Position numbers and translations under genes: made by a program. A model generated the notes under the pieces. It was not told the DNA's origin. It did no database searches and saw only the letters and a list, made by a program, of their open reading frames with translations. A stretch of DNA of 64,000 nt from Larus michahellis (taxonomy: Eukaryota), in the NCBI RefSeq assembly GCF_964199755.1, contig NC_133896.1, positions 203,335,471 through 203,399,470 on the forward strand. Reading direction: 5' to 3'. Positions 1,852 through 53,984 of the stretch are shown piece by piece. Position 1 is the stretch's first letter. Each line of letters starts with the position of its first letter.

Positions 1852-2146
1852 GTTATTTATTTATTTTCTAAGCTTTATTATTCTTTATATATTGTGCAAA
1901 GATGTGCTTTAAAAATGTACAAGGAAGATTCTAGCATTAAAAGCTAACATTGAATGCAATAGTGACATTCTTAAAAATAAAACAATAATCCCCTAGTATT
2001 TCAGTTGTTTAAGATGTCTTTAGAAATCCCATAGAAATGTACTATAAAAAATCCTATTCCTGTGTGGGGTTTATTTGGAGAAATCTTCGAACTGTGTAAG
2101 GGGCTCTTTAACTTTTTGCATTTTGCTTTTCCTTACCCCTTTTCAG

Positions 2147-10467: not shown

Positions 10468-10579
10468 GTATGTATCCTACACCTTCTGTGCTTTTCTACA
10501 ACAACTTATTTATGTGCATGTGTGTACATACACATAAGATTTATCACTAGTTATGATAACTCCAAACTATTTTCTGCAG

Positions 10580-10664
10580 ATTTATTATTATGCTGATGCT
10601 AAGACTACACATACTACATACTCTGATGGCTTAGAGGTCTTGCAATTTTCAAACGGACAAATAG
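10580..10664 (+). CDS. CENPJ: CENPJ G-box exon ([28 protein letters not shown])
   Basis: Matches human [28 protein letters not shown]. Acceptor tttctgcag|a and donor aaatag|gtaaag. Confidence 0.92.
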
Positions 10665-10763
10665 GTAAAGAAATCATCCAACTCGACCAACCCTCAAAAT
10701 TGCTGCCCATATATATATACCTGCATTTATGTAATAAGCATATTGTCTCAAAATACATTTCAG

Positions 10764-10884
10764 AGAAGCATTATCCTGATGGCAAGAAAGAAATTACCTT
10801 CCCTGATCAAACTATTAAAAATTTATTTACGGATGGGCAAGAAGAAAGTATCTTTCCAGATGGTACTATTGTTCGTGTTCAGCG
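10764..10884 (+). CDS. CENPJ: CENPJ G-box exon ([41 protein letters not shown])
   Basis: Matches human [41 protein letters not shown]. Acceptor catttcag|a and donor agcg|gtaagc. Confidence 0.92.
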
Positions 10885-11507
10885 GTAAGCTTTCTCTTTT
10901 CGGGTACCCTTGCCTGTTGCTGGGGAAAGCAGCAGTTAGGGCTCACTGACAGGCAGTATGTGGGCACAGATTTGTTTCTAAAGTTTGCATTTGAATGTAC
11001 TGCAACCGTGTATTTACTGTTTGAAATTTTATTTGTTTACATCTTCTCCAAGCTACAAAAAGACTGAATGCCTGTGTGTGTCTTCTCATACCCTAACCTG
11101 ACTTTTCCGATTTGTGCGTAATTCTAGAGAACGTGTGAGAACCTAGCTGGGGTGGCAAGCAGGTCAGTCTGACTGAGAGTGCTCAAAACATTAGGTTTTA
11201 AACGTTTTGTGGATTGGTGCTGCAATAGATTTAGCGCAGAGAAAGGGCAGCAGAGGCTCTCAAGTATAAAGAAGTCATGTCAGTTCTGCAGAAACGGGTT
11301 TTTGAGTACCAACCAGCTGGGATGGTATTTAACAAAACGGGCTTTTCACAAACACTGTATTTTTTTTTTTTTAGTTCTTCCTTCATTTAGGCTTGCATAT
11401 TTAATGTTTGTTCTGAGATTAAGCTTAAGCCTATGTCTAGTCCTTAGAGGGTCGTGGTTGTTTGTTTTTTTTTTTTTTAAATACTTACATGCATTTATTT
11501 AATGCAG

Positions 11508-18249: not shown

Positions 18250-18980
18250 CATTACGATATTTTCATAGAATCACAGAATCTTCATGGTTGGAAAGGACCC
18301 TTAAGATCATCGAGTCCAACCAAACAACCTACAATCTCTGCCACTAGAACATGCCCTGAAGTACCACATCTAGACGTTTCTTAAATACCTCTAGGGATGG
18401 TGACTCCACCACCTCCCCGGGCAGGCTGTTCCAGTGCCTGACCACTCCTTCAGTAAAGTAATTCTTCCTAATATCTAATCTAACCCTCCCTTGCCTTCCT
18501 AATTTTCTCTCTGTATAACCTAACGAGATATCCGTATTCTTTCTGCGTTGCCTGTCCCTTCTTCCAAAGGTGGTAAACTCTCCTTTTATTCCTAAGTCCC
18601 ATCAGAAGTTCCTTGTCCATCCAGGCTGGCCATTTTCCCCGCCCTTTAGACTTGCAACACTTGGGGACAGCCTGCTCCTGGGCCTTTAAGATTTCCTTCT
18701 TGAAGAGCATCCAGCCTTCCTGGACCCCTTTGCCCTTCAGGACTGTCTCCCAAGGGACTCTCTCAACCAGCGTTCTGAACAAGCCAAAGTCCGCCCTCTG
18801 GAAGTCCAAGGTGGAGGTTTTGCTAACCCCCCTCCTTACATCACTACGAATTGAAAACTTGACCATTTCATGATTGCATTTTACCGATAATCCAAACAAA
18901 TCAATGATTGGGCAATTATTTTTTCTAAACTCAGAATTATAATTCAGTAGCCAGAAAGAAAAATCAATGTTCATTTTCTA
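18250..18980 (-). mobile_element. CR1 LINE, minus orientation, internally deleted (ORF2 N-terminal segment joined directly to the 3' end)
   Basis: 3'-end signature catagaatcacagaatc…ggaaaggaccc…atcgagtccaacc at 18255. The minus ORF 18480-18974 (…VPWETVLKGKGVQEGWMLFKKEILKAQEQ…[17 protein letters not shown]…) matches the ORF2 segment of the CR1 at 61003. Confidence 0.75.
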
Positions 18981-26260: not shown

Positions 26261-26340
26261 GATAGTCAGGTCAGCAGAACAACAAAGAAGGTGTGATCAT
26301 GAATTTATTTCAGATAATTATTTTCAGAGATTATTTGCCA

Positions 26341-26370
26341 CCCCCCCCCCCCCTTTTTTTTTAAATACAT
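26341..26370. repeat. Homopolymer C run (~14) directly followed by a T run (~10), adjacent to an RNF17 Tudor exon
   Basis: cacccccccccccccttttttttttaaat. Confidence 0.9.
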
Positions 26371-26401
26371 GCAAACACACACAACATATAATCCAACTTA
26401 C

Positions 26402-26565
26402 CTGGAGAGTACTACCACCAATTTCTATAACTTTACCTCGATACCACATGGTATCTGATCCTCTTACAACACAAGCTTCTCCCTTTTTCCAGCAGTATGA
26501 CTCCAGAAGACCAAGGCATTTGAAATTACTTTGTATTTCAGTCATCAATTTGTTTAGTTCAATTT
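26402..26565 (-). CDS. RNF17: RNF17 exon, Tudor core first half ([55 protein letters not shown])
   Basis: Tudor core K.G..C.A.FS.D..WYRG.V. Acceptor ccctcccccccag|a and perfect donor ctccag|gtaagt. It joins in frame after the exon at 27768-28075. Confidence 0.85.
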
Positions 26566-27767
26566 CTGGGGGGGAGGGAATAAAATTCAAAATAGTGTAT
26601 AATGTATTAGTGCAAATTCTTTGAATCACTAAAACCCATCAGATTCAGATGAAAATATGTATAAACATAAAACACATGTGCTGCTCCAAAAAATGTTTTC
26701 CAACACTGATACAATACGTATATTCAACTTCTAGTATATGCAAACAAGTTACTACTAAAACAAAAAGTAAACTGCATTTCCAATTGTGAAGCCATTAGTA
26801 ATTCTGGATTCTAATCTCAGAGAAGAAGGGTCTATAAATTTTGCAGCTGGCACCTTGGCAGCAATAATACAAGAGCCTCTCCATGAATAAGAAAACAGAT
26901 TCCCAGAGACAGTGGTAGGACACCGTGAAACAACACAAAACAGATGTCCTGAAGACCCTCTTCTGCTGTGGGTACAGTTTACAAGAAGAATACATTCTTG
27001 GGCAAGTGAGATTACTGCACTTCGAATTTCAGATTTTTATGATATGATCTAATAGGTAAATGTATTTTAGAGTAAAAAGAAAACAACCCCAGACCAAACC
27101 CGTTCTCATATGGAAACATTTCTCTAAGGCGTAACATATTACCATGGTACCATGGTACTGAAGCCTGACACTGCATCTGTCAAATGAAAATGTTTTTTTC
27201 AAAAATAGTACAAACAATAAGTATAAAGAGATACAGAATCTATCACAAGACAATAAAGAGCCCAAGGAAACTGGGTACTGATCTCACACTGAAGGAAAAA
27301 AAAATCCAGTAATATTTGAGAACCAGGGTAACATCTGAGTATTTTTATGATTGTATCTTCATTATTATCGGTAAAATGTACCATAATCTCAACATTATAA
27401 AATATAGCACTCCCAATGCTGCCTAGAGAAGAGAGGCAAGAGACCCGCTCATCCAAGCCCTGGGGGTGTCTGGGTGTCCTGGGAGGTGGGGGGAGAGGAG
27501 AGCTGATGCAGAGGGGTTACAAGACAGGGGCCACTTTCTGGCACCTGGGTCCCTTCCACCGGGCAGCTGCAGGAGCCCCGCCACCGTTGTGCTGCAGAGC
27601 AGGGTGTGCCTGGGCATGCACCCCCCTCACCTCCAACAGCAACCCTCCCCAACAGGAATCCTCCAGAACTGTGTTCTGATACAGAACATGTATACTAGAA
27701 CACATATCTGCTACAGTCCGATATACCAAGGCTGTCACATTCAGACATAAACGTATTTTTTTCTTAC

Positions 27768-28075
27768 CAAGTGATTTTGGTATTATATAAATAGTTCCAT
27801 CATGTCCAACGCAACTTACTACTGCTTGAAAAATTTTTGCTTTGGGTATAGCAGGGGATTTATACATTTCATCCACTCCTGACTGAAGCAGTGCCTTATA
27901 TGTTCTGCACAATTTCTGTTCACTCTCTGAAACAGCGCTGTTTTCCTCGGCAGCAGTGTCTTTTTTTGCACGTGCAGTTTCTGAATTACAACCATCCCGT
28001 TGTGTGTTCTCTTGCTCTAAATGCACTTTAAGATGTTCTCTGGAGTCTGTGTAAGCCACATCAGCTTTCTCAGTT
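27768..28075 (-). CDS. RNF17: RNF17 exon, linker plus Tudor N-terminal extension (TEKADVAYTDSREHLKVHLEQENTQRDG…CRTYKALLQSGVDEMYKSPAIPKAKIFQAVVSCVGHDGTIYIIPKSL)
   Basis: 308-nt open frame. Acceptor ctctgctag|a and donor cacttg|gtaag. It carries the extended-Tudor motif F.A.V…G.IYI. Confidence 0.7.
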
Positions 28076-28396
28076 CTAGCAGAGTCAATCAAATCATATC
28101 AACATGTTAACTGATACAGAACTTGAAAAGTGCAAAGGAATAAGAATAAAGTGCAAAAGAATATAGACAGATAGCAAATACTTGTTAAAATACTGTAAGT
28201 CTCATCTACCAACTTAGAGAACTGAAATGTCCAGTGGATACAATTAATTAAAGTTATACGCAAATAAGTTCACTGAAGATTGAGTTCAGTTGCTACAGAT
28301 GCCGTAGAGGACAGTCCAAATTTTTGTTTTACTTATTAGCTTATCACAATGTGAATATGAGAGTCTGAAAGCATATAACAATAAAAGTATCCAAAC

Positions 28397-31634: not shown

Positions 31635-33036
31635 CTGCAAACTAACATTCAAAAAAACACTCTTCCAGTGGTAAAATTTTATCCAGTGAATAAAGGGCTT
31701 ATTTAGTCCATTACTGCTTAACTAGCACACAGTGAAGTTTTAGTAACTATTTAACAGGCACACAGTATTGTAGTTTTTCTTCATGACATGAGAGAAATAC
31801 ATTAAATGGAGCTTCAAAACACATGCCATCTCATTAAAATGCTATAAAACTATCATGTTTTCTTAAACAATGGAATTAATCTGAGCAATCCTGACCCTTC
31901 TGTATAGTACTCTTTGAAAGATGCACTATTTTCTCTCGACAACTTGAGAGCGTGGTACTCATATAGTGGCATGACTAATTCAATGGGTAGCTACATGCAA
32001 GAAGGTAAAAAGATGAAAGAAAGAATAGGCAGAAAATAAGCAACTTGCACTAAGCAATGAAATTTCCATTTAAGTGCCTTCAAACACTACATATACACTA
32101 TTACTTAAGTATCTACCAAAGGTTGATACACTGTGTCTAGAAATTGCCTTACCAGTTTCCTAACAGCATACCAGAATCACGTTGAAAGAAATAACTTTAC
32201 TGAAGTTCTGTAACTTTGGTCATATAATAATACCGGTACTATTTGACAAAATTTCTAATGAAGGAGTGGAGAGGAAAAAGCAAGAGCAGAAAGATTTAAT
32301 CTTTCAGGACAGTGTTGCATTTGTCCAGCCCCAATACTTACTACATTAGAACTGATTTGAAATAGATCATGTACTTGATTTGGAATCACAAATATTTAAT
32401 AAACCACAACATCGTGCCAATCTGTCTTCTGTTCCTATACTTTCCTCAACAAAGCAACGTAAGTCAACAGCATTCCAAAAGAGAACCCAGTGCCAAACGC
32501 AACCCTAATCAGAGTTTAACTATACTTCACCAGTTTTTAATAAGAATACCTTAACTCAAGAAAAATTCTTTGAATTTTAGTACCTTTTCAGTATGCTTTC
32601 TGATGACAGCCACTGTACAAAAATTTTACTAGGAGACACAACATGACTAATTCTCGCTGGTAGCTCTTTCTTAGAAAGTGATTTGAAATCTCCTTCATCC
32701 ACAGGTTCCATGTCTACAGAATTTAAAGCTTCTGAGGTTTCAGGAATTTCTTCTAGAGGAACATCCCAGATTTCACTGTGCCTTACGACAGTATTTTTAG
32801 TGTACCTGTAAGGAGCATAAAGTAATTAGAATGGAAAGTTTAAACTCATTTTAAACCAAGTGAAAAAGCTCAATAATCACAGTTCAACATGAGAGGAATG
32901 ATTCAACATGAAGAATGAAAAATAATAACTTAGAAAAGCAGAAAAAAATCCCAACAAAAGACAAAAACATTTCTAAATGCTACTTTTGAACTTTTGAACC
33001 ACTCATGATTAGTAACTGATTTTTATCTTCCTTCAG

Positions 33037-33288
33037 ATGGCACAAAGTGTACCCTCAGCAAGTTAGCTGATGATACAAAACTGGGAGGGGTGGCTGACAC
33101 ACCAGAAGGCTGTGCTGCCATACAGAGAGACATAGACAGGCTGGAGAGTTGGGCAGAGAGAAACCTTATGAAATTCAGTAAGGGCAAGCATTAGGGTGCT
33201 GCACCTGGGGAGGAACAACCCCATGCACCAGTACAGGTTGGGGGCTGACCTGCTGGAGAGCAGCTCTGTGGAAAGAGACCTAGGAGTC
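33037..33288 (+). mobile_element. Older CR1 LINE, plus orientation, left piece (ORF2 …[17 protein letters not shown]…[19 protein letters not shown]…[12 protein letters not shown]). It is interrupted by a younger CR1 and its right piece is 35901-36585
   Basis: CR1 RT C-terminal coding sequence. It ends in agctctgtggaaagagacctaggagtc, the same 27-mer that restarts at 35901. Confidence 0.75.
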
Positions 33289-35900
33289 ATGGAATCACGG
33301 AATCTTCAGAGTTGGAAGGGACCTCTAGAGATCATCTAGTCCAACTCCCCTGCTAGAGCAGGATTGCCTAGAGCACATCCCTCAGGGCTGCATCCAGGTG
33401 GGTCTTGAAAGTCTCCAGAGAAGGGAACTCCACAACCTCCCTGGGCAGCCTGTTCCAGTGCTCTGTCACCCTCACTGTGAAGAAGTTTTTCCGTGTATTT
33501 GAACGGAACTTCCTATGTTCTACCTTGTGCCCATTGCCCCTTGTCCTGTCACTGGGAACCATTGAAAAGAGCCTGGCTCCGTCCTCCTTAAACCCACCCT
33601 TTAGATACTTGTAAACATTAATCAGGTCCCCCCTCAACCTTCTCTTCTCCAGGCTAAAGAGTTCCAGCTCTTTCAGCCTTTCCTCATAAGGGAAGTGCTC
33701 CAGTCCCATAATCATCTTGGTTGCCCTACGCTGGACTCGCTCCAGTAGTTCCCTGTTCCTCTTGAACTGGGGAGCCCAAAACTGGACACAGTACTCCAGT
33801 TGTGGCCTCACCAGTGCAGAGTAGAGGGGCAGAATGACCTCCCTCGACCTACTGACCACACTCTTCCCTATGCAGCCCAGGATGCCATCGGCCTTCTTGG
33901 CGACAAGGGCACACTGCTGGCTCATGGATAATTTGCTGTCTACCAGGACCCCCAGGTCCTTCTCCTCAGAACTACTTCCCAGCATGTCCGCCCCTAACAT
34001 ATACTGGTGTTTGGCATTCTTCCTTCCCAGGTGCAGGACCCTACACTTGCTTTTGTTGAACCTCATTAGGTTCTTCTCTGCCCAGCTCTCCAGCCTGTCC
34101 AGGTCACGCTGGATGGCAGCATGATGCTTGGTATCATCAGAAAACTTGCTGAGGATACACTCTGTCCCCTCATCTAGGTCATTAATGAATATATTGAACA
34201 AAATTGGTCCAAGTATTGACCCCTGAGGGACACCACTCGTTACAGGCCTCCAACTGGACTCTGTGCCGCTGATCACAACCCTCTGAGTTCTGTCACTCAG
34301 CCAGCTCTCGATCCACCTCACTGTCACCTCGTCTAGCCCATACTTCCTCAGCTTCCTAATGAGGATGTTATGGGAGACAGTGTCAAAAGCCTTGCTAAGG
34401 TCAAGGTAGATGACATCTACGGCTCTCCCCTCATCCAGCCAACCAGTTATAACATCATAGAAAGCTATCAGATTGGTCAGGCATGATTTGCCCTTGGTAA
34501 ATCCATGCTGACCACTTCCAATAACTTCCTGTTCCTCTATGTGTTTGGAGATGACATCCAGAATGAGTCGCTCCATTACCTTCCCAGGGACAGAGGTGAG
34601 ACTAACCGGCCTGTAGTTCCCTGGGTCCTCCTTCTTGCCTTTTTTGAAGATTGGAGTGATGTCAGCCTTCCTCCAGTCCTCAGGCACCTCTCCTGTTCCC
34701 CATGACCTTGTAAAGACAATGGAGAGTGGTCTAGCAATAACATCTGCCAGCTCTCTCAGCACTCGCAGGTGCATCCCATCAGGGCCCATGGATTTATGAA
34801 TGTCCAGCTTGGCCAAGTGGTCTCTGACCCGGTCCTCCTCAACTGAAGGAAAATCTTCCTCTCTCCAGACCTTCCCCCTTGCCTCCAGGGTATGGGATGC
34901 GTGAGGGACGGCTTTGTCAGTGAAGACCGAAGAAAAGAAGGCATTCAGTAACTCTGCCTTCTCTGTGTCTTCCACCACTAGGGCACCCGTCTCAATTCAT
35001 CAGTGGCCCTATATTTTCCCTAGTTTTCCTTTTTCTGTTGATATACTGGAAAAATCTCTTCTTGTTGTCTTTAACTGCAGTGGCCAAGCTGAGTTCTGAT
35101 TGAGCTTTGGCCTTTCTAATCTTCCCCCTGCATAGCTTTGTTATATCTTGATAATCCTCATAAGTTGCTAAGCCCCTTTTCCAGAGAAGGTAAGCCTTCC
35201 TTTTTTCCTGAGGTCCAGCCAAAGCTCTCTATTTAGCCAGGCTGGCCTTCTTCCCCGTCGGCTCGTCTTTCGGGACATGGGGATGGCCTTCACCTGCGCT
35301 TCTAAGAGCACCTGCTTGAAGTATGACCAGCTTTCCTGGGCACCTTTGCTCTTCAAAACTGCCTCCCAAGGGACACTCTCAACCATGCTCCTGAACAGGC
35401 TAAAGTCTGCCCTTCGGAAATCCAAGGTGGCAGTTCTGCTGGCTCCCCGCCTCCCTTCACCAAGAATTGAAAACTCTATCATTTCATGGTCACTCTGCCC
35501 AAGACGACCTCCAACCTTTACATCCCCCACAAGACCTTCTCTGTTAACAAACAGTAGGTCCAGTAGGGCACTTCCCCTAGTAGGTTCCTTCACCAGCTGT
35601 GTTAGGAAGTTGTCTTCCACACACTCCAGGAACCTCCGGGACTGTTCCCTCTCTGCTGTGTAGTATTCCCAGCGGACATCCGGGAAGTTGAAATCCCCCA
35701 CAAGAACAAGGGCAGATGATCACAAGACCTCTGCCAGCCGCTTATACAATACTTCATTGGTTTCTACATCCTGACTAGGGGGTCTGTAACAAACTCCCAT
35801 CATGATATCTGCCTTGTTGGCCTTCCCCTTGATTTTCATCCATACACACTCAACACTGTCATTCACACTGTTGAGTTCTAGACATTCAAAACTGCCCCTA
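33289..35900 (-). mobile_element. Young, near-complete CR1 LINE ORF2, minus orientation. It has an endonuclease C-terminus plus an intact-looking 536-aa reverse-transcriptase ORF and is nested inside an older CR1
   Basis: 3'-terminal signature (rc) atggaatcacggaatcttcagagttggaagggacc at 33289. ORF 33368-34978 carries the RT motifs (…FDTVSHNIL…FADD…) and the C-terminal [27 protein letters not shown] 35168-35701 carries the endonuclease GDFNFPDVRW. Confidence 0.85.
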
Positions 35901-36585
35901 AGCTCTGTGGAAAGAGACCTAGGAGTCCTGGTGGACAACAGCATGATCATGAGCCAGCAAAGTGCCCTTGTGGCCAAGAAGGCCAAGGGCATCCTGGGGT
36001 GCACCAAGAGTGTGGCCAGCAGGTGGAAGGAGGTCTTCCTCCCCCTCTACTCTGCCTTGGTGAGGCCCCATCTGGAGTGCCCTAATCCAGTTCTAGGCTC
36101 CCCGGTTCAAGGACAGGGAACTGCTGGAGAGGGTACAGCAAAGGGCTACCAAGACGATTAGGGGACCAGAACACCTCTCTTATGAAGAAAGGCTGAGGGA
36201 TTTGGGTCTCTTCAGTCTGGAAAAAAGATGACTGAGGGGGGATCTTATCAATGCTTATAAATACTTAAAGGGTGGGTGTCAGGAGGATGGGGCCAGCCCT
36301 TTTCAGTGGCGCCCGGCAACAGGACAAGAGGTAATGGGCACAAACTTGAACATAGGAAGTTCCACCTAAACATGAGGAGGAACTTCTTTACTTTGAGGGT
36401 GGCAGAGCACTGGAACAGGCTGCCCAAGGAGGTGGTGGAGTCTCCATCTCTGGAGACATTCAAAACCCACCTGGATGTGTTCCTGTGCAACCTGCTCTGG
36501 GTGACCCTGCTCTGGCAGGGGGGTTGGACTAGATGATCTCCAGAGGTCCCTACCAACCGCTGTCATTCTGTGATTCTGTATCCTT
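35901..36585 (+). mobile_element. Older CR1 LINE, plus orientation, right piece (ORF2 C-terminus and 3' UTR) ending in cattctgtgattctgta
   Basis: …[25 protein letters not shown]… then [32 protein letters not shown], then ggttggactagatgatctccagaggtccctaccaacc…attctgtgattctgt. Confidence 0.8.
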
Positions 36586-37849
36586 GCACATCTTACTAAC
36601 AGATGAAAGCACTATGCAATATAGGCTGCCAGCAGAAAAGCGAGCCTGACACAAATGGACTGCTGAATGTTTGTGTCTGCCTTAAAAGACATTAAATTAT
36701 TAATATGATGCTTCTGGAAATCAACGTTGCCTCTGAGTGGAAGCTGCAATGTTCAACTTCTAAGATGTGTAAATACTCCTTCCAGAAGACTATTAACATT
36801 AGTGAAACATTTACCTTTCTAACATTCCCTGAAGATATAAATGCAACACAATTGGAGCTAGCTCTTTCTTAAGTAGAACACTGAATAAAGTACGGTCGTC
36901 ATAACACCTTGATGAAGTTTTTTTAAAATTGTGTGAACTGGATATGGATAAAATAAAGCTCAACAGCAATTAAGAACTGGCTGGTATGTATTTTGAGCAA
37001 CAGCCCAGCTTAGTACAAGCCTGTGTGAATTGTGCCAACTAGAGAAATAAGGGATTGCAGCTTGAAAAAAAACAAACCACCAACACAAAAACCTAACCGT
37101 TAATGCAAAAGAACTGGCTTCTTGTAAACATTACTGACTAAAGGAGACAGTAAGCCTGAGTTTAACTGCTGGCCATTTCTGGGCCTCCAGGAAGAAACTC
37201 TTTCCTGTTTTCAGAAACCTAACGCCTGTCTTTTCCTTCACAGGAAGGAACAAGCTGCTCTGTCAGAGAGATCATCCACTATACACCGCTACACAATTAT
37301 TTATGCAAACCTTCCCGATGAAGATATTTGGAAACTGCTGGGTTAAACAGCTAACTTGTAGAACCAGGAAAGAAATGAATGCCATGACTCATGAATATGC
37401 TGAACATGCTTACCTTGCATACAACTAGTCTGAACTATGAAATGGACAAAGGCAAGAGATCTCCCAAGTGAAACACCTCACCTCACAGGTCTTACAGCCC
37501 CCTCTCTAGTAACTCCAGTATAGCATTATAATTGCAGATCCATCAGAAAAACCACTCAATTTGGAATGAACTTCAGACTCCAAGGTTTTGTCCTGGAATT
37601 CTGTATGGACTACTTTCCATCCTAATGCAAGAGTAAGATTACTGATGTTTGCTTGTCTGAAAGTCAGCTTCAGCGGAGTGCTGTGCTCTCCTACTTATAT
37701 TGTTTTACATTAGTTCAGAGCTGGCCTGGGTATCCCTCAACAGCATTAAACATGGAAGAATAACCATAACACAAATGGGATTCTAAATGACCTAAGGTAG
37801 GTTTAAATTATTCACCGGTCTCTTGCCTTTTTGCAGGCAACCATCTTCA

Positions 37850-38700
37850 CAAATGGGAAATACAGTGAGAAAGCATGACAAATGAGCTCTGGAGGGCTTG
37901 AGACCTATGCCCATAGAAAAACAAAGTGAGCCAAAAACCCCCAAAGCCTCCCAGAGGAAACATCATTCCAACTACAAGACATGGTGCACTGGGTGTAGAT
38001 GTCCAGAGGTCGGTAGCTGGAGAGAGTGGCTCCAGAGGTGACCAGAGAGAAGAGTCCAGGTGCTGCCCCGGTGCAGCCCGTTCCAGCTGTCTCTGCAACA
38101 GACCCCCCACAGGACATGGCTGAATCTGTCAGTGAAGCTGGTGGCAACTCTAATTTAATGAAGGGCTGAAAATGCCAGGGAGAGAGAGGAGGGAACAGAA
38201 GAGAAATAAGATGGAGAACACCAACATCAAAAGAGTAGAAGGCCTTTTGTGGATGAAGAGGCACACTCCTGAAGGGTCTGAGACCCGCGGAGGGCCCGTG
38301 CTGGAGCACAGGAAGAAAAGAATAAGAGGGAAGGAGCGGCAGGGAGAAAGTGCAGTGTCCTGACCTCAGGCCCTGCACTGCTCCCTGCAGGGACAGAGTG
38401 AAACCAGAAGGCAGGAGGGGGAGAAGGGTGCTTAGAATAAACTTGAGCCTGGGAAAGGGCAGGTGCAGATGCTATAAATATTTGTCTTTTGTGTCCCAAA
38501 GCCTGAATCAGTAATTAAATATTTATGATAATTAGTAATAAACTAAGTTAAATTAAGTCTGTTTTGCTTGCAACAGTACTTGGTAAGTGATCTCCCTGTC
38601 TTTATTTTGACCCATGAGTTTTCTTGCTCCTGTTTCTTCTGTTTTCTCTCCAGTTGAACTAAAGAAGGGGAAGTGAGCGAGCGACCAAAAAATCCACATT
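37850..38700 (+). mobile_element. GC-rich LTR-like block. It may be a solo LTR of an endogenous retrovirus, but the family is unknown
   Basis: An abrupt rise in GC, overlapping ORFs on both strands with no coding character, a TATA box (gctataaatatttg, ~38470) followed about 60 nt later by AATAAA (~38540), and no CR1 signature. Confidence 0.3.
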
Positions 38701-40984
38701 AATCAAGTTATGTGTTACACAGCAACTTATATTAAAGTAACACACACACTCGATCGCAAGCAGGCATCTAAGTATAGCTGCAACACAACAAAATACCCTG
38801 GTGACAGTGACAAAACAATTAGGCTGTTCAAGTTTAAATAAAGCTGCTTAACTTTACAAAAATCTTACTAAAAATTGTGACCAGCACAAGAAAACCATTA
38901 GTGGTATTTAGTTGCATTTCTGAGCTAAGAGATGAAAATCCACTTATTTGCTTCCTCCTGAAAAAAGCAAATTGAGGAATTCCCTTTTTTTTTTGGAATC
39001 AAAACTTCTGATTTAACAATCTGTTTCATCAATATCCAAAATTATTAATGAAGAATAATTATTGATTTTCAGTAATAGAGCCCATGGATTATCTTTTCAA
39101 GAAGCCAATACATTAAATGCAGCAGTGTTATCTCTGTATTTTGAGTTTCTGTTTTTTGAGTATTTGTTTTCTAATAACAGACCTTCCAAAGAGATAACTT
39201 ACCTTAGGTGCATATTAAACACTCAAAAGTGGTATTTCTTTTCTTACTACCTGAGAATGGGAACTTTAATGATAACCAGTTTGGGAAGATTTGGCACTTA
39301 AGCACATTGAAGCATGATGCAAACATTTCATCTCCAACTTTTGAATCAATTACAATTTCAATACATGTTAGTTAAGATTTAGTTTGAGAATTCAGCTATG
39401 CCAAACTGCAGAGTTACACTCTGTAACTTATGTCAGTTGATGAATGTGATCTGTAGTAAATTTATCACAAGTGGGCAAATTCCAGCCACTGGAGGTGACA
39501 TACTAAAGCCAGTAATTTTGTTACACAAATTCAGTATTTCCAAATACTTACATTATGCACAATGTATATAGAAGTTATGCACAGTGTATTTACCCAGGTA
39601 TGTAGGATGCTAGGTCTTCTTTAACTAGCTGGCAATTAATACTAAAGCTTCTTCCGTGAACAGCAGAGAAGTCAAAGAGTTCAACAGATAAGACGTTATT
39701 ATCTAAAACTTCTGTGAATGAATAACGTAAACATAATTAGTGCAAATCAATGACAGTATAAAGACCATTTATGGTTTTGGAGGCACAGCAACCAGTAATA
39801 AAAGACAGAATTTTGTAAAATTGCATTTGATTTATAAAAGAATTTATTCCGAACATCAACAATATGTGGAGGCTTAGCTTTGCATGTATCTATAAAACTA
39901 ACTTAAAATACACCAATAATTACAAAGTATTTTTGTAAAAGAAACCAACCAGTACATGTAATTTCATTTATTAGATGGATTCCAAACCACCATTCCACAG
40001 TTGAAAAGTAACTATCTACATATTAACAATAAATGGTAGTGAGAAAAATCCTACTAAGGCATGTATCTGTTATATGAACTTTTTTTTTTTGGTTGCGATG
40101 TTTTAGAGCAGCAGTGATCACACTTCCACCTGTCCATAAAGTCAGGAAGAGTGAAGGATAGCTAGTACTTTTGGAAACAATCCCATCTTAATAAACCAGG
40201 ATACTTATATCACTTAATGCTGGTGTGGTCTGTAAGAGAAGACATAAACAGAGCTTTTGTCAGAAGTTGTATCTGTTATGTCTACTCCAATTAGTCCATG
40301 TTTAGATATTCTCACTGCAGGCTACCTGTTGCAAGTACGAACAAAAGCATTTCAAATAAATACTATTTAAAATACAGAAGTGCATGTTTCTACATTTGAG
40401 TCAATTTAATAATATTTAAATATAAATAAATACACTCTTGATAACTTACCAACAATTGAACACAGCGTAAGTTTATCTTCGGTCATTTCTGCAAATCTTT
40501 CTTTGGCTTTCCCGTTCCACTCATTTGCCTCTTTGTAAGGCTCAAGGTAAGCCAGTCTGCACCTGATTGCCTGAAGAATAACTCAAATTATGTATTGACT
40601 ACCACATATGAAGACCATCTCATTATAGCCAAATCACAGCCTTTACTTTCCACCATGAGGACAGCAAGACAGCATGACCTTGGCTTCTGGTTCCACATCA
40701 CCATTATTTGATTTGATTTAAAATGACCACCTCCACCCCATGGAGAACCTCAAATTAAGATACATTCCTGCTGAAATAGAAAGAGCTTACTTCTTGCTTC
40801 CCTTTATGGTTAGGCATAGAATTAACATGACTACACCACTGTAGAAGTCTGAAGGACTAAACACAGGGACACCAGAGTACCATGGGACCTGTGTCAGAAA
40901 TTCCTGCCAGATTTTTGAAAGCTATTGATTACGAGACAAAAAAAAAAAAAAGAAAAAAAAAAAGACACACACAGGAAATCAGAA

Positions 40985-41280
40985 TAGTTCTCCCTGGTGA
41001 CAAGTGATAGGACGAGAGGAAACGGGCTCAAGTTACATCAGGGGAGGTTTAGATTGGATATTAGGAAACATTTTTTCACTGAAAGGCTTATTAAACATTG
41101 GAATAGGCTGCCCAGGGAGGTGGTGGATTCACCATCCCTGGAGGTGTTTAAAAAAAGGGTAGATGGGGCACTTAGGGACATGGTTTAGAAGTGGCTCTTG
41201 TCAGGGTAGGTTAAAAGTTGGACTTGATGATCTTAAAGGTCCCTTCCAACCTCAGCAATTCTATGATTCTATGATTCTAA
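40985..41280 (+). mobile_element. CR1 LINE 3' fragment, plus orientation
   Basis: …[53 protein letters not shown]… then ggacttgatgatcttaaaggtcccttccaacc…attctatgattctatgattcta. Confidence 0.85.
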
Positions 41281-41604: not shown

Positions 41605-42065
41605 TATATGTCATATGAGGAGAGGCTGAGGGAGCTGGGCATCTTTGGCTTGGAGGAGAGGAGGCTGAGGGGAGACCTCATTGCCCTCTACAGCTACCTG
41701 AAAGGAGGTTGGAGAGAGGTGGGTGTTGGCCTCTTCTCCCAAGTGAATAATGACAGGACCAGAGGAAATGGTCTGAAGTTGCGTCAGGGGAGGTTTAGAT
41801 TAGACATTAGGAAGAATTACTTTACTGAAAGAGTGGTCAGGCACTGGAACAGCCTGCCCAGGGAGGTAGTTGAGTCACCATCCCTAGAGGTATTTAAGAA
41901 ATGTCTAGATTTGGCACTTCAGGGCATGCTCTAGTGGCAGAGATTGTAGGTTGGTTGTTTGTGGCTTGGTGTTTTTTTTTCTTTTTTTTGGGGTGTGTGT
42001 ATGGTTGGACTTGATGATCTCAAAGGTCCTTCCCAACCATGAAGATTCTATGATTCTAAGATTTC
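41605..42065 (+). mobile_element. CR1 LINE 3' fragment, plus orientation, young subfamily
   Basis: …[32 protein letters not shown]…[29 protein letters not shown]… then ggttggacttgatgatctcaaaggtccttcccaaccatgaagattctatgattcta. About 95% identical by eye to 62690-63110. Confidence 0.85.
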
Positions 42066-45000: not shown

Positions 45001-47813
45001 GTTTTACTAAACTTATTTCTAAACTTACCAACTGGAGATAGAAATCACTTGGACTATTAATGTGACAAACTATAACACAGACGACTTCTCCTTCTTGTGG
45101 AATCTTAGGTGGACTATACTGCAAGACGGTATTATTTTCTAACTGACTGGGAAGCTGTGATCTAAACCTAAGGTAAACAGAATGAAATTCTGAATAAATT
45201 TTATCAAAATTTACTGAGAAGGAACCCTTTTATATTCAAATATCAAGTTTCCCATGAAAAATGCAAAATGGTCCTATAAAAATAACTTGATTCATGTTTG
45301 TATGAATAGATTGAACTTCCTTCTTGCATTTGGTGCAGCCAGTTCTCCCTAATGCTTCTCCCATCACAAATGTAACAACATATGAAGAATGATATATGGC
45401 AGCTGGCTCCTAAAAAGATGTTCTTATTTGGGATGCAGTAGCGTACATTAAAATTGTTAAAAAAAAAAAAGTGTAAGGCTAGAATCCACTACATAGACAA
45501 AACCATTTTCTTTTAGATTTCCTTTTCCTCACTTTAAGGAAAAACCAATTACCTGAGGAACACAGATGCAGTAAAAAAAACACATCTCCTGCTGTTCTCA
45601 CCACCCTAACTAGTTATGCTCAAATATAAACAAAGACCTTTCTTTGTGTGCAGCAAAATGAACTGTCATTTCCTACACATTTGCATGCCATATCCCTGTA
45701 TCCAAACAGCAGAACACTCATGTTCTCTATCTCCTGCCTCTTCCACTGGTCCCTCCAAAGCAGCTCTCCTCTGTCCTAATGCCAACATCAAGCTCCCTCC
45801 CCCTTATGCCCTATCATTGTTTCTCCTATTCGTTGTGCTATATGCATCATGTCACCTGCCTGGTTCAGAGTGCTGACTAGCCTGGGACTGCCTACCAGCC
45901 ACATCAGATACAAGGCCAATTCCTGTATGTTTTTCTGTTCGTGGCAGACACTAAGGGCTTCTCCTTTCACCTCTTGTTACTCTAATTTGGACAAAAATTT
46001 AAATTTTGTCATTTTCTATAATAAAGCTCATTATCCACATAAAGCCCTGACTAGTTCAAAAGAGCACTTATTAGTGAACGTGGAAAAAGGAAATCAACAG
46101 AAATCGCTGAAGGTGAGTACATCACACATCAATATATCAAACACTGCAAAACCAACTTGCTTGGTAAAACTTCACTTGATAGGTATTATGCTGTTATCAT
46201 TTATGGCATAAGAGCATCAACCAAAGGGAAACACATACCTTGCCAAGTCTAAGAAAACTAATGCATCCTTGAGAGACACTGGCATGTTATTGCTTATTTT
46301 ATTAAATGGAGGTTTTTTCAAATCCACAATGAGAACACCATCCTCTTCTCTAAATATGGTCATTAAAACAACTTTATTATTGACCATTCCTAAAAATTTT
46401 GTCGTTGCTTCCTCTCCCCAACCTTCATTCTGTGTTAGGAAGAAAAAGGTAGTTACTGAAGATGTCAGAGAATATTAAAACAAAAAACCCCACAATTAGT
46501 AATTAAAAAAAAAAAAAAGGCAGCAAGGAAGGGAACACAGATGCATCTGAACAGATGAAATACTGAACACAGACTGCCTGGTCCATAGCCAGGACAGCAC
46601 TAAACAGTATTCTTCTATGATGGATTTATAAGTGTTTTTAATTGTATAAAACTGAGTCAGATCAAAGGGCTGCAGTTTCCAACATGTTTCTTTTGAGAAT
46701 TCAAGATTTCATCCCCTCTGATTGTTCTGATAGATAAATCAGAGTTGTCATACGCCATTTCATCTCATGACTTACATTTCTGCTCTCCCAATAAGTTTGA
46801 AAGTTTACTCCTGTATTTTCGTGTCTTTATACAAATGTACAACATATTTTGTTAATTTACACATTCCTCCTCTCCACAACATCCTTCTTGAGGGTTTATC
46901 TACCTTGAAAAAGTCTGTCTGAATTTATTTCTCTTGGATCAAGTTAATGCATTTCTCATTTGATACTGCAAAAATCTGTGCTTTTTAGGTGGGAAAAAAA
47001 AATAAAAATAAATGAAAGTGCATGTAAGGAAGACATTTTACCCACACCGGTGAAAACTGTTTCAGATCTTCCCTATTTAAAGCTATTTCAGACAACATCA
47101 GACTGGCAAAAAAAAAAACGCAACCCAAAAAAACCACAAAACCAACCAGCAGTTCTACTGTCAGAAACGCACAGCTGCACTGGACACAGTTCATTCCCAC
47201 ATGAATATGGCAAAAATAAAGAAAGCCTAATAAATAAGTGAATAATGAAGAAAATAATGCTGCAACATATGTCCTTTTTCTAAGGGGATAAAGACTGTCA
47301 GTACTTTTATTTATCATTATACTGAAAGAGAACACATAGCACTTTTCAACATGTTGCAAAAATTTTAAGTAACAAAGACAATCCTCGAAAAGAGTCTCTT
47401 AAAAATTCTCAAACCATTTTTTCTCTGGAAAAAGTTACTACTTTCTCTGGAAAGTTACTACTTGCATAAAGTTACCAGACAGACACGAAATAAGAGTATC
47501 AGGTCTGTACTTTGTTTTTAAATTTGACAAAAGAACATGTCTAGAGTAAGAGTAGTGAGATTTAAGCTTGAAATATGTATTCATAAACCCAGAGGCTTTT
47601 AAAGACAGTCTGCCATAAGCTTGTTTCCTTTCCAATGAAAGCAATGCAACCCATCATTTTACAAAAAATAAAATATACCCTGTACTCCTCTCAAGCTTCC
47701 TTCTGCTTATACTGGAATAAGATCATTGTAAATTATGTATGTAAGTTCTTTAATATAAATCTTAGGAAGAAAAAAAAATATCTCCTGAAATAGTACCAAC
47801 AGCTTTTACTTAC

Positions 47814-47979
47814 TGCATTTCTGGGAACAACATCCTTCAACGAACACCGTACTGCTAAAGGAGGAACAGCTGCAAGTTCTGCCTCAATATGCTGATCAGG
47901 TTTCCTTACAAACAAACAAATGTCATCTGTTTCAATAGTTTCCTGAGTAGCAGTTTTGGGCCTTTCAGTGTGAATGTAT
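47814..47979 (-). CDS. RNF17: RNF17 exon, Tudor second half (YIHTERPKTATQETIETDDICLFVRKPDQHIEAELAAVPPLAVRCSLKDVVPRNA)
   Basis: Acceptor cccattgacaatag|a and perfect donor aaatgca|gtaagt. Motif LP.LAV.C.L..V.P. Confidence 0.65.
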
Positions 47980-48426
47980 CTATTGTCAATGGGAAAAAAA
48001 GCAGTACTAGCTTTAAAGAAAAGCAAAACCCCAACGCCAACCCCCCGCACCCAAATCAAATGCCTGACTTAAAATAAAGGCCATTATTGCAATAATAGAC
48101 ATAATGTCATTGAAACAAAACTAAAAAGTCTCAATGAAATGCCTTTTTTTTTTTTCTTTAAAACATTGAGGACTCACGTGTTCTCTTTTGCAATGCAAGT
48201 TTAAGTTAAACATTTGAAGGTATGAAGGCTTGTACACTTGTATACTTACATACACTGACACTTTTCTTGTGGGAAATACATATGTACAAAACATTAGTGT
48301 CATTTGTGTATCTGGTCATCTGCTTGCGTGAAGCTGATGGAGGACTTGTTTCTTAGTAGAGATCCTCTTGAGTAGCAACAGTCAAGGACAACAATCGAAG
48401 ACAAAAAACTCTCTCTGTAAACATAC

Positions 48427-48616
48427 CCTGAGAAAACGAGAACTACAGAGCTCCCAAAATCTATCAGGAATACTTCCAGCAGTGCAATATCACAAACTTT
48501 GTATCCTATCGGACCACAAGACTTCCTCTCATTTTCACTTCTTAGGGGAATTAGTCCAGTGATAGTTCCACGGCACCACATTCCAGTTTCCTTACTCTTA
48601 ATGAAAGTTCTACCAC
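48427..48616 (-). CDS. RNF17: RNF17 exon, Tudor core (GRTFIKSKETGMWCRGTITGLIPLRSENERKSCGPIGYKVCDIALLEVFLIDFGSSVVLVFS)
   Basis: Tudor core G.WCRG.I… plus V.LIDFG.S.VV. Acceptor gcttccgtatag|g and donor tcagg|gtatgt. Confidence 0.8.
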
Positions 48617-49779
48617 CTATACGGAAGCAAATTAAAAAGACACCAAAGACTAAATTCAGCATTTGCAGGTATTTCACACTGGAAGCATTATCAGAGTTCT
48701 GCATAATGTTCCATTGTTGCCTATCTTCCACACAGGTAGTAAAGAGTGCTACTGATAAAATAAAGACATTAAAAACTTTGTCTTGATAGCCACCAGAAGT
48801 TTTCTCCCTCATTTACACAATGCCTGTAAAGCTAGGAGGTGTTAGGCTTCTGCTGAGAAGTAATTTCTACCTACCTTTCTATACCTCTTAGTAAAGTGGC
48901 AAAAACCCAATGAAGTTGAGGGCTATTACATACTTTTTGTAAGCTTTCTAAACACCTACCAGAAGCGAGTAACAGTGTCAATGTGTGGGCTAGAAAATAA
49001 TTTTAAATGATTTGGCAATGCATTATTGTCATTGTCTTTCGGTTTTAATTCCAGAATAGTTTCTATCCAGTTAGTGAACTTTAAAAAAAAAAAAATACAT
49101 CCACTCAAAGGGAACGTTGCTTGCATGCAAGAAAGCTAATTTACTGAAGTAATAGAAGAACTAGGCTACTCATTAAAATAGGTACACTGAAAAAAGAACT
49201 ATCAGTTAACAATTACCACCTAATGCTGGAAAACAGTCAATTTACAGTCAGGTGTTTCAACTGCTGGTTACTCTAAGCGCTCAATTTGCTGAGGCTAAGA
49301 ACCGCAGAGTCTTTTTTACTTCTACTGTTTTCATTTATATGATTTAATAATAGTTTAGTTTATCGAACAATGTGTACAATGTTCCCCAAAAGCATTAATT
49401 GTAGATCCCAGGACAGACAAGCACTGCTTGACTATGTGAAGGCAGAGGTGGGGAGGGGGGAGGAAAAAAAAAATACTACGGAAACATACTACAAGACAGT
49501 ATTTTAAGCTACTGTAGACCTTTAGAAATTAATAATTTACCTAGTTGCAAAACATCTGAAGGCAAGAGATATGAACTCTTATTACAACAAAAGTTTTTCA
49601 ATTTCTTCTCCAAAACCCCTGCTTCTTTCTTCTGTGAGTATCTCCGAATATAGAAGTGGCATGGATTTATAACATGGCTAACAATCACTAGTTCTGTCCA
49701 ACCTGAGTAAGACAGAAAACAGATTATCAGCCACTCTCCAAGTGACTCCGACCGGTGTTATTAGACAGGTGATTAGGTT

Positions 49780-49990: not shown

Positions 49991-51552
49991 AGAGCAAAAC
50001 TGCTGGTACTAAGAATGACATCTGCACTGTAAGCACCTCCCAGACTAGTTTTAACTGGAAGGAAATCAATTCGTGTGCCCCAAGTCTGCTCTTACACGTG
50101 AGCAAATACATGCTAACTAGAGACAGTCAGGAGATCTTCTTCCTAGTACGTTCCTGACCTCAACTACAATGCTAACGTACGTGTCCAACCTCTCCAAGAA
50201 ATTCCAATGCCTGCTCTCGCTGCTTACAAGATGGGTCTCTGTTAGTAAACTAAACCATTTACCAGATAGGAAAACCACTAACCAGCTTTGTGTTGAAAAG
50301 GTGTTTCCTTCTTGAAGAGTTTCTTCCTCTGTTCACCAGCATGATATTCTGCAGGAAACTCTGTTTGTTTATTGTTTTAGGAAAAGTTTAATGAATTAGG
50401 TTAGTTAAGCATTTATATATATATGCAGTAAAGCAGCAAACACAGTAAAGAGAAATTACATGTGTCTGTAAGGGTACTGCAGAGGCAAAATCTCTCCTAT
50501 TTGATGCAACCGAAACAGATGCATGCGCAGTCCACGTGGCCAGCCCACATGCTACCTCCAAGATTACAAAACTATCATTAAAATTTGTAGATTCAAGACA
50601 CGCAAAACCCATAACACTGTGGTTTGAAGGAATTTTGTTCTGACAGGAGTTTTGTGAAATCCTCTGGGATTCTGGAATATACTATTTCAGACACTCATGC
50701 CCAAGCTCTGAAATTTATTTTCCCTTGATCACAGCTATATGCTAGCACAATTACTCTCACATACCACCCGTACCCGCTCCCTCATCCTCCCCAAGCATTA
50801 CTCATCACAGGAATTTTCTAGGTACGTTGTGCACATAAGCCACTCTGAAGTTAAGCATCTTAGTTGTACTGTGGGAAGCATCTAACTATTATATATCCTA
50901 TTATCTAATTGGATTTTTTTATGTTCCAACCTGTTCCTAACGCCTTCAGCCCTATCACTCAGCACCTCCTGGACACCAGCTTGGTAGGCTCCACTGGACT
51001 CACTCCAGTATGACAGTGACTTTCAGTACTGCAGGGTCCAAAACTGGACACAATACTCCACATTCAGTCTCACAAGAGCCTGAGAGGGGAAGGATCACTT
51101 CCTGGACCTGTTAGTTACACTCTTACTAATACAGTTCAGGGAAAAGCTGACAACAAGCTGAAGAACCTAATTGTTATTGCCAGTTAATGTAGAACAATAC
51201 CCCAGAAGATGATTCAGGAAGACAAAGGAACTGCCAGAAAAACATACTGCAGGAGCCACTGCCAGAAACTCTGAGGAGGACTGTAATAATTAAGAGTCAA
51301 ATAGAATCATCCAGGTAAACACAGGAACTCATGACCCCTCTTCGAGAGAACTTGGGAGAAAGTTTTCACTAAGTTAAGCTGAAGGAGGACAAAAAAGAAA
51401 CAATGCTAACTGGAAGGAAGATAATGTGAAATACAGACATCATTAAAGAACTTATATGAGCCAAGTATAACTACAAATGGACAACATAATACAAAACACA
51501 TAAATAACACCATGCTTAACAATGGAACACTTAAAGGTATTAAGAAACTTAC

Positions 51553-51880
51553 TTCCCAGGTCATCTTCAAATATTTCCTCTATTATGACATCAGGACTGG
51601 ATGGAGACTTGGGCAGAGCAGGAATACTCTGATGACGTATCACAGGAACTGTTTCTTGTACTTGAGTATTTTTCACTTCTTTGTGAACACCAAGTTTATT
51701 TGCAAGAGCCTTTATTTCCCTTTCTCTGCTAAGTGCTGGAAACATATTCTCTACAGATGACTGAGTATCACAGCTTGGCATTTCTTCTTCAGCATCAAGG
51801 ATAAGAGTATGTTGTCCATTATCTTCACTACATTTGGGAAAACATTTATTTGGAGACAAATTACTGTAATCCAGTCTGTT
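51553..51880 (-). CDS. RNF17: RNF17 large inter-Tudor exon (…CFPKCSEDNGQHTLILDAEEEMPSCDTQSSVENMFPALSREREIKALANKLGVHKEVKNTQVQETVPVIRHQSIPALPKSPSSPDVIIEEIFEDDLG). The 5' boundary is uncertain by up to ~70 nt
   Basis: Long minus-strand open frame with Ser/Glu-rich linker composition. Perfect donor ctgggaa|gtaagt. Three possible acceptors (aaaacag|a, ttacag|t, aaatgtag|t) cannot be resolved by eye. Confidence 0.55.
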
Positions 51881-53984
51881 TTCAGAAAAGCACACAAGTC
51901 AAAGCAGAGGTTTTATTAAGAATGTATCACTATGTTAAGCAAGCACCTTGTAAGAGCTGGTTGAAAAAAACTGTATTATGTTCTAGAATACCAAGACAAC
52001 AAACACAATAACAAGATTTCTGAAACCTAAAAAGGATTGGCACAGAAATGGTACATATTCTCGCACACAGCTCAGTACAAACAAGAGCCACCTCTGCCTA
52101 AATGATCAGAGACCACAGATATAAATACAAATCATCTGAAAAAACACATTAATGATGTGATAGTTAAAAACGAAAGACATCAGATGCTTTTGTACTAACA
52201 GCTACTCTTCACTGTAATCTGCAGGATTTTCAAATATTACAGTATGCAATATGCTTTTTTTTTTTTAACATAACCAGTGCTAACTACAATGACCCTAACA
52301 GCAACTCCATTCCATTTTCTCAAGTTTTTTCAAATATTGCAGGGAAAAATAAAGGGGACTAATAAAATAAAAGCAATTGTAATTTTAAAAATAAAAGTTG
52401 TGTTTTTCCAGGTTTAAGTTCATCTTAAGTAATTTCTTTTGGCATTTGACGTAATCGGCATTTAGACTGTGAAGTGGAAATACTATAATTTTAGTATTTG
52501 CTGTTGACTTTGGAGGTTTATTTACACTTACATGAAGTAACTTTTATATGGTGAAATAATAAACAACTCTATTGTATCACTAAACATCAGCCAAAGCTGA
52601 AAAAAACCCACACATAAGAAAAGCAAAGCAAGAAAACCCACAAGCATAAGAAAATCTTAGTAACTTAACTGATACAGTGAAATATAGTTGGGTGAAACCC
52701 CAGTAAAACTGAAATGTCAGAACGGAAACGCTAAGTGGATGAACTGGAATGCTGACTGAAATACCAGCATCTGAAGTTTTCCTTCGTGTCATTATACTCT
52801 TAGAAACCAACACACACATGCAGTTGGTTTTTTTTTTTTATATTTAATCTCCAATAAATATTTAACGATTAGAAGAACAGGTAAGTTACTGTATTCATCC
52901 TCTTTATTAAAAAAACATACTTACTGCCCTGTTGTTCCCCATTCAATCTTGCCCAGTTTTTTAAACAAAGATGTAATCTCATCAGTGTTTAGGAAGAATC
53001 TCGAGAGAAGAGAAGCAGCATTACAAGAAGCACCACGAATACCTAAAATCACTCTGATGGTTTGAGATGTACAGTATTTTTCAGCACAATATTCATGGAG
53101 GAGCAAAATTAAGAGATTAATTGCCTACTCCAGGTTCATTCTTCCATGCTTATTAACACAGGTTTGGTTGCTCATTTATCTTCACATTCATACTTAAAAA
53201 CTTTCTTGCCTTTTGCTTTCTTTCTCTCTCACGCACTGAGTCCTCCAGCATTCACTGAGTCTTCACACCTAAACTCAGTTTAGTTCAATAAATTATTCTG
53301 CACAGAGATAAAGAATTCTCCAACAGTCATGAAGAAAAAACCAGAACTGAAGTCCAAAATGCATGTTCTTTTTGTTCTGTTTGTTGTTACGCTAATAAAC
53401 AGCTGTTTCCTTTACCAATGAAATCTAGCAAAATCTTTTAAGTACTTCTACAGTTAGGCTAACACAACTGTCAATATAACATCATTCAATCACATCCTTA
53501 GCTTTGTTGTCCAGTTATAATGAACAATTTGTGAAAACTGAGATGTAAGCAGTATTGAACAGCGCATCTTTTCTTCTCCCCTGGCCACTTTCAGGAATCT
53601 ACTCATTGTTCTACAGTATTTTAGGTTTACAGAATGCGCCTCAACTCTTATGCACTTCCTAGTTGTGATTTTTTCACCTTTGGTGCTATTTTGGGGTGGG
53701 ACCAGCATGTGAGACCTTTATACTTACCCTCCATCTCCTTTCTCCCCATTTTGTTCAAGTTCTTAAAAGGTCTTCCAATGCAAAACAAATTTGATTTGGT
53801 CATGTTTTATCTTTCTTCTAGGTTGGGAGATTTTGCCATTGTGCATTTAATAGGCTTCTCTGAAATTCTCATTCACCACTGACATTACCTACAAAACAGG
53901 CCCTACCTACCAGGTCACTAAGTTTACTAGAAGATTCCTTTATCCATATTCTAATGGCTCAACACACGACAGGAGGAGCCATAA

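Follow-up and report, generated by a model that had tools for sequence, protein, structure and literature searches.

An antisense CR1-in-CR1 insertion with an apparent 25–27 bp target-site duplication in Larus michahellis

Can a CR1 retrotransposon leave behind a target-site duplication several times longer than is usual for its family? The question is raised by a stretch of 64,000 nucleotides from Larus michahellis (assembly GCF_964199755.1, contig NC_133896.1, positions 203,335,471 to 203,399,470 of the forward strand), referred to below as the window, in which a younger CR1 element (the inner CR1) lies in antisense orientation inside an older one (the host CR1). An earlier note on this DNA had claimed that the open reading frame 2 (ORF2) of a plus-strand CR1 is broken at 33288/33289 by a 2.6-kb minus-strand CR1 and resumes at 35901, and that a 27-mer stands at both junctions. 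This anatomy, which can be read directly from the sequence, holds. The coordinates of the individual features are collected in Table 1.

The exact 27-mer, AGCTCTGTGGAAAGAGACCTAGGAGTC, is found on the plus strand at 33262–33288 and 35901–35927, the only two matches in the window even with up to three mismatches tolerated, and 100 dinucleotide-preserving shuffles of the window yielded zero matches. The bases flanking the two copies differ on each side (c versus a before the repeat, a versus c after it), so that the exact repeat is limited to 27 nt; a repeat search lengthens the match to 31 nt with one mismatch, with the triplet TGG present by coincidence 3' of both copies. Since the final two bases of the first copy (TC) are equally well explained as the GA of the terminal octamer of the inner CR1, the length of the duplication is given here as 25–27 bp.

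The proposal that the 27-mer belongs to the host CR1 itself, and was truly duplicated, is borne out by comparison with three uninterrupted CR1 copies, namely the inner CR1, the CR1 located at 60.6–63.1 kb of the window, and a copy from Rissa. After deletion of the insert and of one copy of the repeat, the plus-strand ORF2 reading resumes across the junction, and the joined host, carrying a single 27-mer, aligns across it without a gap to all three references. The segment homologous to the 27-mer is present once in each of them, and the 27-mer is therefore a single-copy sequence of the host that was duplicated; no CR1 copy examined has this segment twice. In the inner CR1, the homologous segment lies on the other strand and differs at 6 of the 27 positions. 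The two halves of the host share CR1 coordinates only across the repeat. The repeat thus borders the insert directly on either side, and without the insert and one repeat copy the host runs collinear with the other members of its family, as expected of a duplicated target. Judged by these alignments, the repeat appears to be a genuine target-site duplication of 25–27 bp.

The two elements are independent of each other. In BLAST alignments, the inner CR1 matches the host at 33036–33292 and 35901–36576 of the window with 77–79% identity, and the right arm of the host extends to a hairpin and octamer 3' end of its own. Host and inner CR1 overlap along ~880 nt of CR1 coordinates (1730–2609), and since the same region of CR1 is represented in both and differs by more than 20%, they must be independent copies that belong to different subfamilies, not rearranged parts of one copy, a possibility that the earlier note had named as one that would undo its reading. 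The host CR1 also looks the more decayed of the two, its 0.9 kb being broken by several stops and frameshifts, whereas the inner ORF is nearly open over 2.4 kb.

The reverse complement of the inner CR1 reads, in translation, as CR1 ORF2 almost throughout. The frame ends with ...LRDVL followed by a stop, and is disturbed by one internal nonsense codon and by a short stretch between two frameshifts. Its first residues align, in full-length CR1 proteins, to the stretch VRECLDSLELN within the endonuclease domain, and the element is therefore 5'-truncated at that point, with no obvious extra bases. On the opposite side, the sense strand ends with ...GAGTTGGAC...GTCCCTTCCAACTC TGAA GATTCCGT GATTCCAT, so that an intact 3' junction faces a truncated 5' one. 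Both terminal octamers represent a variant, ATTCCRTG, of the usual ATTCTRTG (C for T); the 91%-identical Rissa copy, unlike the inner CR1, has the usual form. A 3' end formed by a hairpin and an 8-nt microsatellite is a feature of the family (PMC8665684; the octamer also in PMC2612034). The energy of the hairpin predicted in the 3' untranslated region (UTR) of the inner CR1 is no better than that of shuffled sequences, and the call is based on its likeness to the hairpin conserved among CR1s; an Rfam scan of the window detected no RNA family. With an ORF2 that encodes an apurinic-type endonuclease and a reverse transcriptase, and with a 3' end that consists of a hairpin followed by octamers and has no poly(A), the inner element shows the features by which the CR1 clade is recognized. 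It departs from the typical CR1 in its duplication, which would be expected to be absent or very short (<6 bp, with a peak at 3–5 bp), but this expectation describes a typical property, not a definition, and the element remains a CR1.

A protein search with the inner CR1 returned CR1 homologues from birds and turtles by the thousand. Similarity is highest to proteins of gulls and shorebirds, namely Rissa tridactyla (87%), Calidris (83%), and Limosa (81%), and also of kiwi, so that the nearest relatives are found in Charadriiformes and kiwi, not in galliforms, the group to which the earlier note referred; the protein collection contained no identical or near-identical ORF. At the DNA level, the Rissa copy is 91.3% identical to the inner CR1 over 2222 bp, and the two are paralogues within one subfamily, as the flanks of the Rissa copy are unrelated to the window. 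A count of protein motifs across the CR1 matches was too crude to be used, as 63 of the 116 proteins escaped the regular expression. Two changes are seen in the reverse transcriptase of the inner CR1. Its catalytic FADD box is changed to FSDD and, compared with the Rissa copy, ~10 codons just after this box have been lost in frame (~34130–34160, minus strand). Judged by its coding sequence, this particular copy could not have been autonomous.

The length of the duplication stands apart from what is reported for CR1 elements. The statement of the earlier note that their duplications are absent or very short agrees with the literature: CR1 elements have been described as showing no target-site duplication (Kriegs et al. 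2007, PMC2169234) or none to very short ones, <6 bp (Suh et al. 2011, PMC3265382), and in the nested-transposon survey of Ichiyanagi and Okada (2008), as cited by Yamaguchi et al. (2014, PMC4245944), the peaks for L2- and CR1-clade elements are at 3–5 bp. Among 13 species-specific CR1 insertions in coelacanth, the duplications are 2–10 bp long (PMC4255032), and 93% of the ZfL2-1 inserts in chicken DT40 cells have duplications of 1–8 bp (Yamaguchi et al. 2014, PMC4245944). The window itself gives the same picture, since three other CR1 insertions with recovered empty sites have duplications of 0–1, 0–2, and 5 bp, and in a crude scan for flanking repeats, covering all 12 copies of the window and the Rissa locus that retain an intact CR1 3' end, the inner CR1 scored 27 nt and all others no more than 9 nt. 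A duplication of 25–27 bp is thus clearly outside the usual range for CR1, being several times longer, and the description of it as unusual is justified.

The inner CR1 therefore combines common and uncommon traits. It resembles other avian CR1s in its ORF2 endonuclease and reverse transcriptase, in its hairpin and octamer, in its 5' truncation, and in an octamer-like target, and differs from them in its duplication and in the ATTCCRTG variant of the octamer. On the other hand, duplications >20 bp form an established separate category of target-site alteration by long interspersed elements (LINEs) (Yamaguchi et al. 2014, PMC4245944). The present case resembles these long target-site duplications (L-TSDs) in having a direct repeat beyond the main peak around an otherwise ordinary, 5'-truncated LINE insert; the category covers L1, ZfL2 (zebrafish L2-clade), and Nimb in cell-culture assays, whereas here the element is an avian CR1 (PMC4245944). 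The literature examined contains no explicit report of a duplication >20 bp for an avian CR1, the tail frequencies in Ichiyanagi and Okada (2008) being outside its scope. With the nested-transposon approaches TANT (Ichiyanagi and Okada 2008, in so far as that survey is described by later authors) and TinT (chronology of nested insertions), our analysis shares the rebuilding of a pre-insertion target from the sequence of a known repeat, although it concerns one locus and not a genome-wide distribution.

Orthologous loci were found by a homology search with an exon-like minus-strand ORF of the window, the matches being assembled sequencing runs of other birds. Loci L002–L004 and L005 represent two related bird species, and share 96% identity with each other and ~81% with the window. 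In every one of these loci, the block 33041–36577 is absent in its entirety and its two flanks adjoin directly; the flank alignment stops at 33040 and resumes at 36578, giving ...CCTTCAGAAG^GTATCCTTGCAC... as the empty site of the host CR1, the own target-site duplication of which is 0–1 bp. Consequently, the insertion of the host CR1 is lineage-specific, and that of the inner CR1 is younger still. The check for an empty site proposed earlier was thus successful only in part: orthologous loci do exist, but the host CR1 is also absent from them, and only the host could be dated in this way. An empty site of the inner insertion, orthologous or allelic, was not found by ORF look-up, homology search, or metagenome scan. 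In particular, an exact look-up of a nearby 157-aa ORF of the window gave no record; the host ORF, rebuilt without the interruption and used as a homology query, retrieved nothing but paralogous CR1s, with no more than 77% identity over the full length; and scanning metagenomes for the 20-nt core of the 27-mer produced three matches that are due to chance and lack similarity to the window, two of them bacterial by our reading. The same orthologous loci give empty sites for two CR1 3' fragments of the window (41606–42057 and ~40986–41278; the L002 positions are 1393–1397 and 1723–1959), which are therefore lineage-specific insertions as well. The target of the fragment at 41606–42057 is also octamer-like (AAGATTTC versus ATGATTCT).

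The two copies of the duplication are identical at 27 of 27 positions. The computed chance of such identity is ~exp(−54d), where d is the per-site divergence per copy, and falls below 5% once d exceeds ~5.5%. Together with the near-open ORF2, the identical copies fit a fairly recent insertion of the inner CR1, which by the orthologous comparison is also later than the split from the two outgroup species.

The arrangement is very probably the result of two successive CR1 retrotranspositions, the second of them nested in antisense orientation by target-primed reverse transcription. First, a 5'-truncated plus-strand CR1 of ~0.9 kb would have entered an intron-like, AT-rich region with an essentially nil duplication (0–1 bp). 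Later, a CR1 of a different, younger subfamily would have integrated in the opposite orientation inside it, at a site that would read ...CTGGAGAGC AGCTCTGTGGAAAGAGACCTAGGAGTC CTGGTGGAC..., with one 27-mer. The plus strand would have been nicked after ...CCTAGGAGTC (33288), and the free 3' end at this position would have primed the copying of CR1 RNA from its octamer tail. In the sense of the element, the target reads GACTCCTA and matches the octamer GATTCCAT at 5 of 8 bases; homology between CR1 octamers and integration sites has been reported (PMC2612034), and the octamer-like target agrees with this site preference. Reverse transcription would have stopped 2612 nt in, inside the region coding for the endonuclease. 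The minus strand would have been broken between the positions matching 33261 and 33262, that is, between ...GGAGAGC and AGCTCTG..., ~27 nt from the first nick compared with the usual ~0–6 nt, and the fill-in of the staggered ends would have duplicated 25–27 bp of the host CR1. The sequence in which the nicks were made, and the stagger between them, are inferences drawn from the standard model of this process. The distant second break could represent the stochastic tail of cleavage by the element, a pre-existing nick, or processing by a host nuclease.

Three points weigh against this account. A repeat of 27 bp is well outside the reported CR1 range and leaves room for a non-standard break of the second strand, the junctions are taken from the assembled sequence, and, as the searches gave no empty site of the inner insertion, the single-copy state before insertion would follow from paralogous CR1 copies.

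The first of these points leads to an insertion that was real but not ordinary, in which complementary DNA (cDNA) of a CR1 was captured at a pre-existing staggered break, a stalled fork, or a pair of nicks. The stagger is indeed far from the 3–5 bp mode of CR1-clade elements, as quoted from the earlier survey in PMC4245944, and in other LINEs the duplications >20 bp are treated apart from the main distribution. Such a capture nevertheless appears unlikely, as a complete 3' end at an octamer-like target is what normal nicking and priming of the first strand would leave, and only the second break need be unusual. LINE insertions independent of the endonuclease, as known from L1, are typically without duplications, often 3'-truncated, and not at a target site of the element's type. 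The inner CR1 has a complete 3' end, an octamer-like target, and a duplication, and does not conform to that type. We can also speculate, with more doubt than in the case of capture, that CR1 may have a minor distinct route in which the second strand is broken ~25–30 nt from the first nick, giving a discrete class of long duplications. If this were true, a secondary peak near this length would reveal how the CR1 integration complex is arranged in space, or how a host nuclease acts on the displaced strand.

It is highly unlikely that the composite of an old CR1 and an antisense CR1 was formed elsewhere and arrived as a unit, by retrotransposition from the 3' end of the host CR1 or by segmental duplication, in which case the duplication would date from an event at another locus. 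The absence of the whole block 33041–36577 from the two outgroup species fits one 3.5-kb insertion equally well, and only the 3' hairpin and microsatellite are thought to be required for CR1 mobilization (PMC8665684). However, such an origin is less parsimonious, the host looks more decayed than the inner CR1, and neither the composite nor the 27-mer occurs anywhere else in the window; even then, the 27-bp repeat would remain a target-site duplication of a CR1. Even less credible is an artefact of assembly, in which misjoins induced by repeats would have set a foreign CR1 between two occurrences of a short stretch of shared sequence. No other repeat is as common as CR1 in bird genomes, but a misjoin through shared sequence would leave one copy of it, not two, and the 27-mer is absent from the inner CR1, where the homologous segment is divergent and on the other strand. 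Additionally, the junctions coincide with a complete CR1 3' end and a 5' truncation, as they would in a real insertion. Finally, the idea that the inner segment is a piece of the host CR1 itself, inverted or rearranged through twin priming or by a later inversion, can practically be dismissed even though both elements are CR1s in opposite orientation, because host and inner CR1 cover coordinates 1730–2609 at only 77–79% identity, and the inner CR1 is collinear with other copies over its full length and has its own 3' end. The ~880-nt overlap at this level of identity specifically rules out a 5' inversion of the L1 type.

Table 1. Features of the nested CR1 locus and of the remainder of the 64-kb window
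Feature	Position	Strand	Description
Host CR1, whole	33041–36577	+	~0.9 kb without insert; limits from outgroup empty site
Host CR1, left arm	33041–33288	+	5'-truncated within ORF2; inner-CR1 coordinates 1730–1958, 77–84% identity
Host CR1, right arm	35901–36577	+	Inner-CR1 coordinates 1928–2609, 79% identity; ends ...CATTCTGTGATTCT
Target-site duplication, copy 1	33262–33288	+	27 nt; abuts 3' end of inner CR1
Target-site duplication, copy 2	35901–35927	+	27 nt; abuts truncated 5' end of inner CR1
Inner CR1	33289–35900	−	2612 bp; 5'-truncated within endonuclease domain; ORF2 nearly open
Inner CR1, 3' octamer microsatellite	33289–33304	−	Sense GATTCCGT GATTCCAT; abuts 33288/33289
Inner CR1, 3' UTR hairpin	33308–33348	−	GAGUUGGAC...GUCCCUUCCAACUC; stem predicted by folding
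Inner CR1, 536-codon ORF	33368–34978	−	Contains RVT_1 domain
Inner CR1, reverse transcriptase	34001–34636	−	Pfam RVT_1, E = 2.9e-34; ORF residues 115–326
Inner CR1, endonuclease, apurinic-type, C-terminal part	35477–35800	−	Pfam Exo_endo_phos_2, E = 1.8e-9
CR1 3' fragment	~40986–41278	+	Absent from orthologous loci; duplication 0–2 bp
CR1 3' fragment	41606–42057	+	Absent from orthologous loci; duplication AAGAT, 5 bp
575-codon ORF	2075–3802	+	CPAP tubulin-binding region (Pfam); CENPJ/CPAP exon
Tcp10_C ORF	10553–10888	+	CENPJ/CPAP exon, downstream of 575-codon ORF
Tudor-domain exon	26327–26629	−	Pfam TUDOR, 1.9e-5
Exon-like ORFs	27517–28092, 47733–48059, 48300–48812, 51452–51895	−	

As for the genomic setting, the domain assignments indicate that the first ~11 kb of the window are filled by the 3' part of CENPJ. 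The minus-strand gene with a Tudor domain is presumably RNF17/TDRD4, given the human synteny with CENPJ. Because the nested CR1 is flanked by exon-like ORFs on the minus strand, it probably sits in an intron of the Tudor-domain gene, and the inner CR1 would then share the orientation of that gene. Since the inner CR1 is antisense to the host, the locus also contains long imperfect inverted repeats (33036–34171 versus 35901–36557), with arms of 44–262 nt that are 77–85% complementary and 0.65–2.7 kb apart; should the intron be transcribed, these arms could pair with each other as a long stem of double-stranded RNA.

Two further observations concern other parts of the window. Two minus-strand CR1 pieces, 18266–18486 and 18492–18877, are separated by 5 bp and correspond to CR1 coordinates 408–792 and 2391–2611. 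They are most simply explained as one CR1 with an internal deletion of ~1.6 kb, due to a template jump or to later loss, the alternative being two insertions. In turn, a 1.09-kb segment (37764–38857) is present in the window and in L005, and is missing from L002–L004 (L002 ~3927–3931), a distribution that points to a probable deletion in the lineage of L002–L004. Inspection of the ends of this segment revealed no features of repeats or transposons.

The locus described here is a CR1 nested in a CR1 with a long but mechanistically conventional duplication, a single outlier of a recognized class and not evidence of a new mechanism. The view in the earlier note that this one case is informative about second-strand cleavage by CR1 is overstated, as a single locus sets no frequency and changes no model, and it serves mainly to encourage a survey across the genome. 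The length of a duplication is read as a fingerprint of where the LINE machinery breaks the second strand, which for CR1-clade elements is reported to lie within a few bases of the first nick, and the clean case of 25–27 bp shows that CR1 second-strand breaks much farther away can occur. For bird phylogenetics, it is a caution regarding the assumption that CR1 insertions are without direct repeats and hence not precisely excisable.

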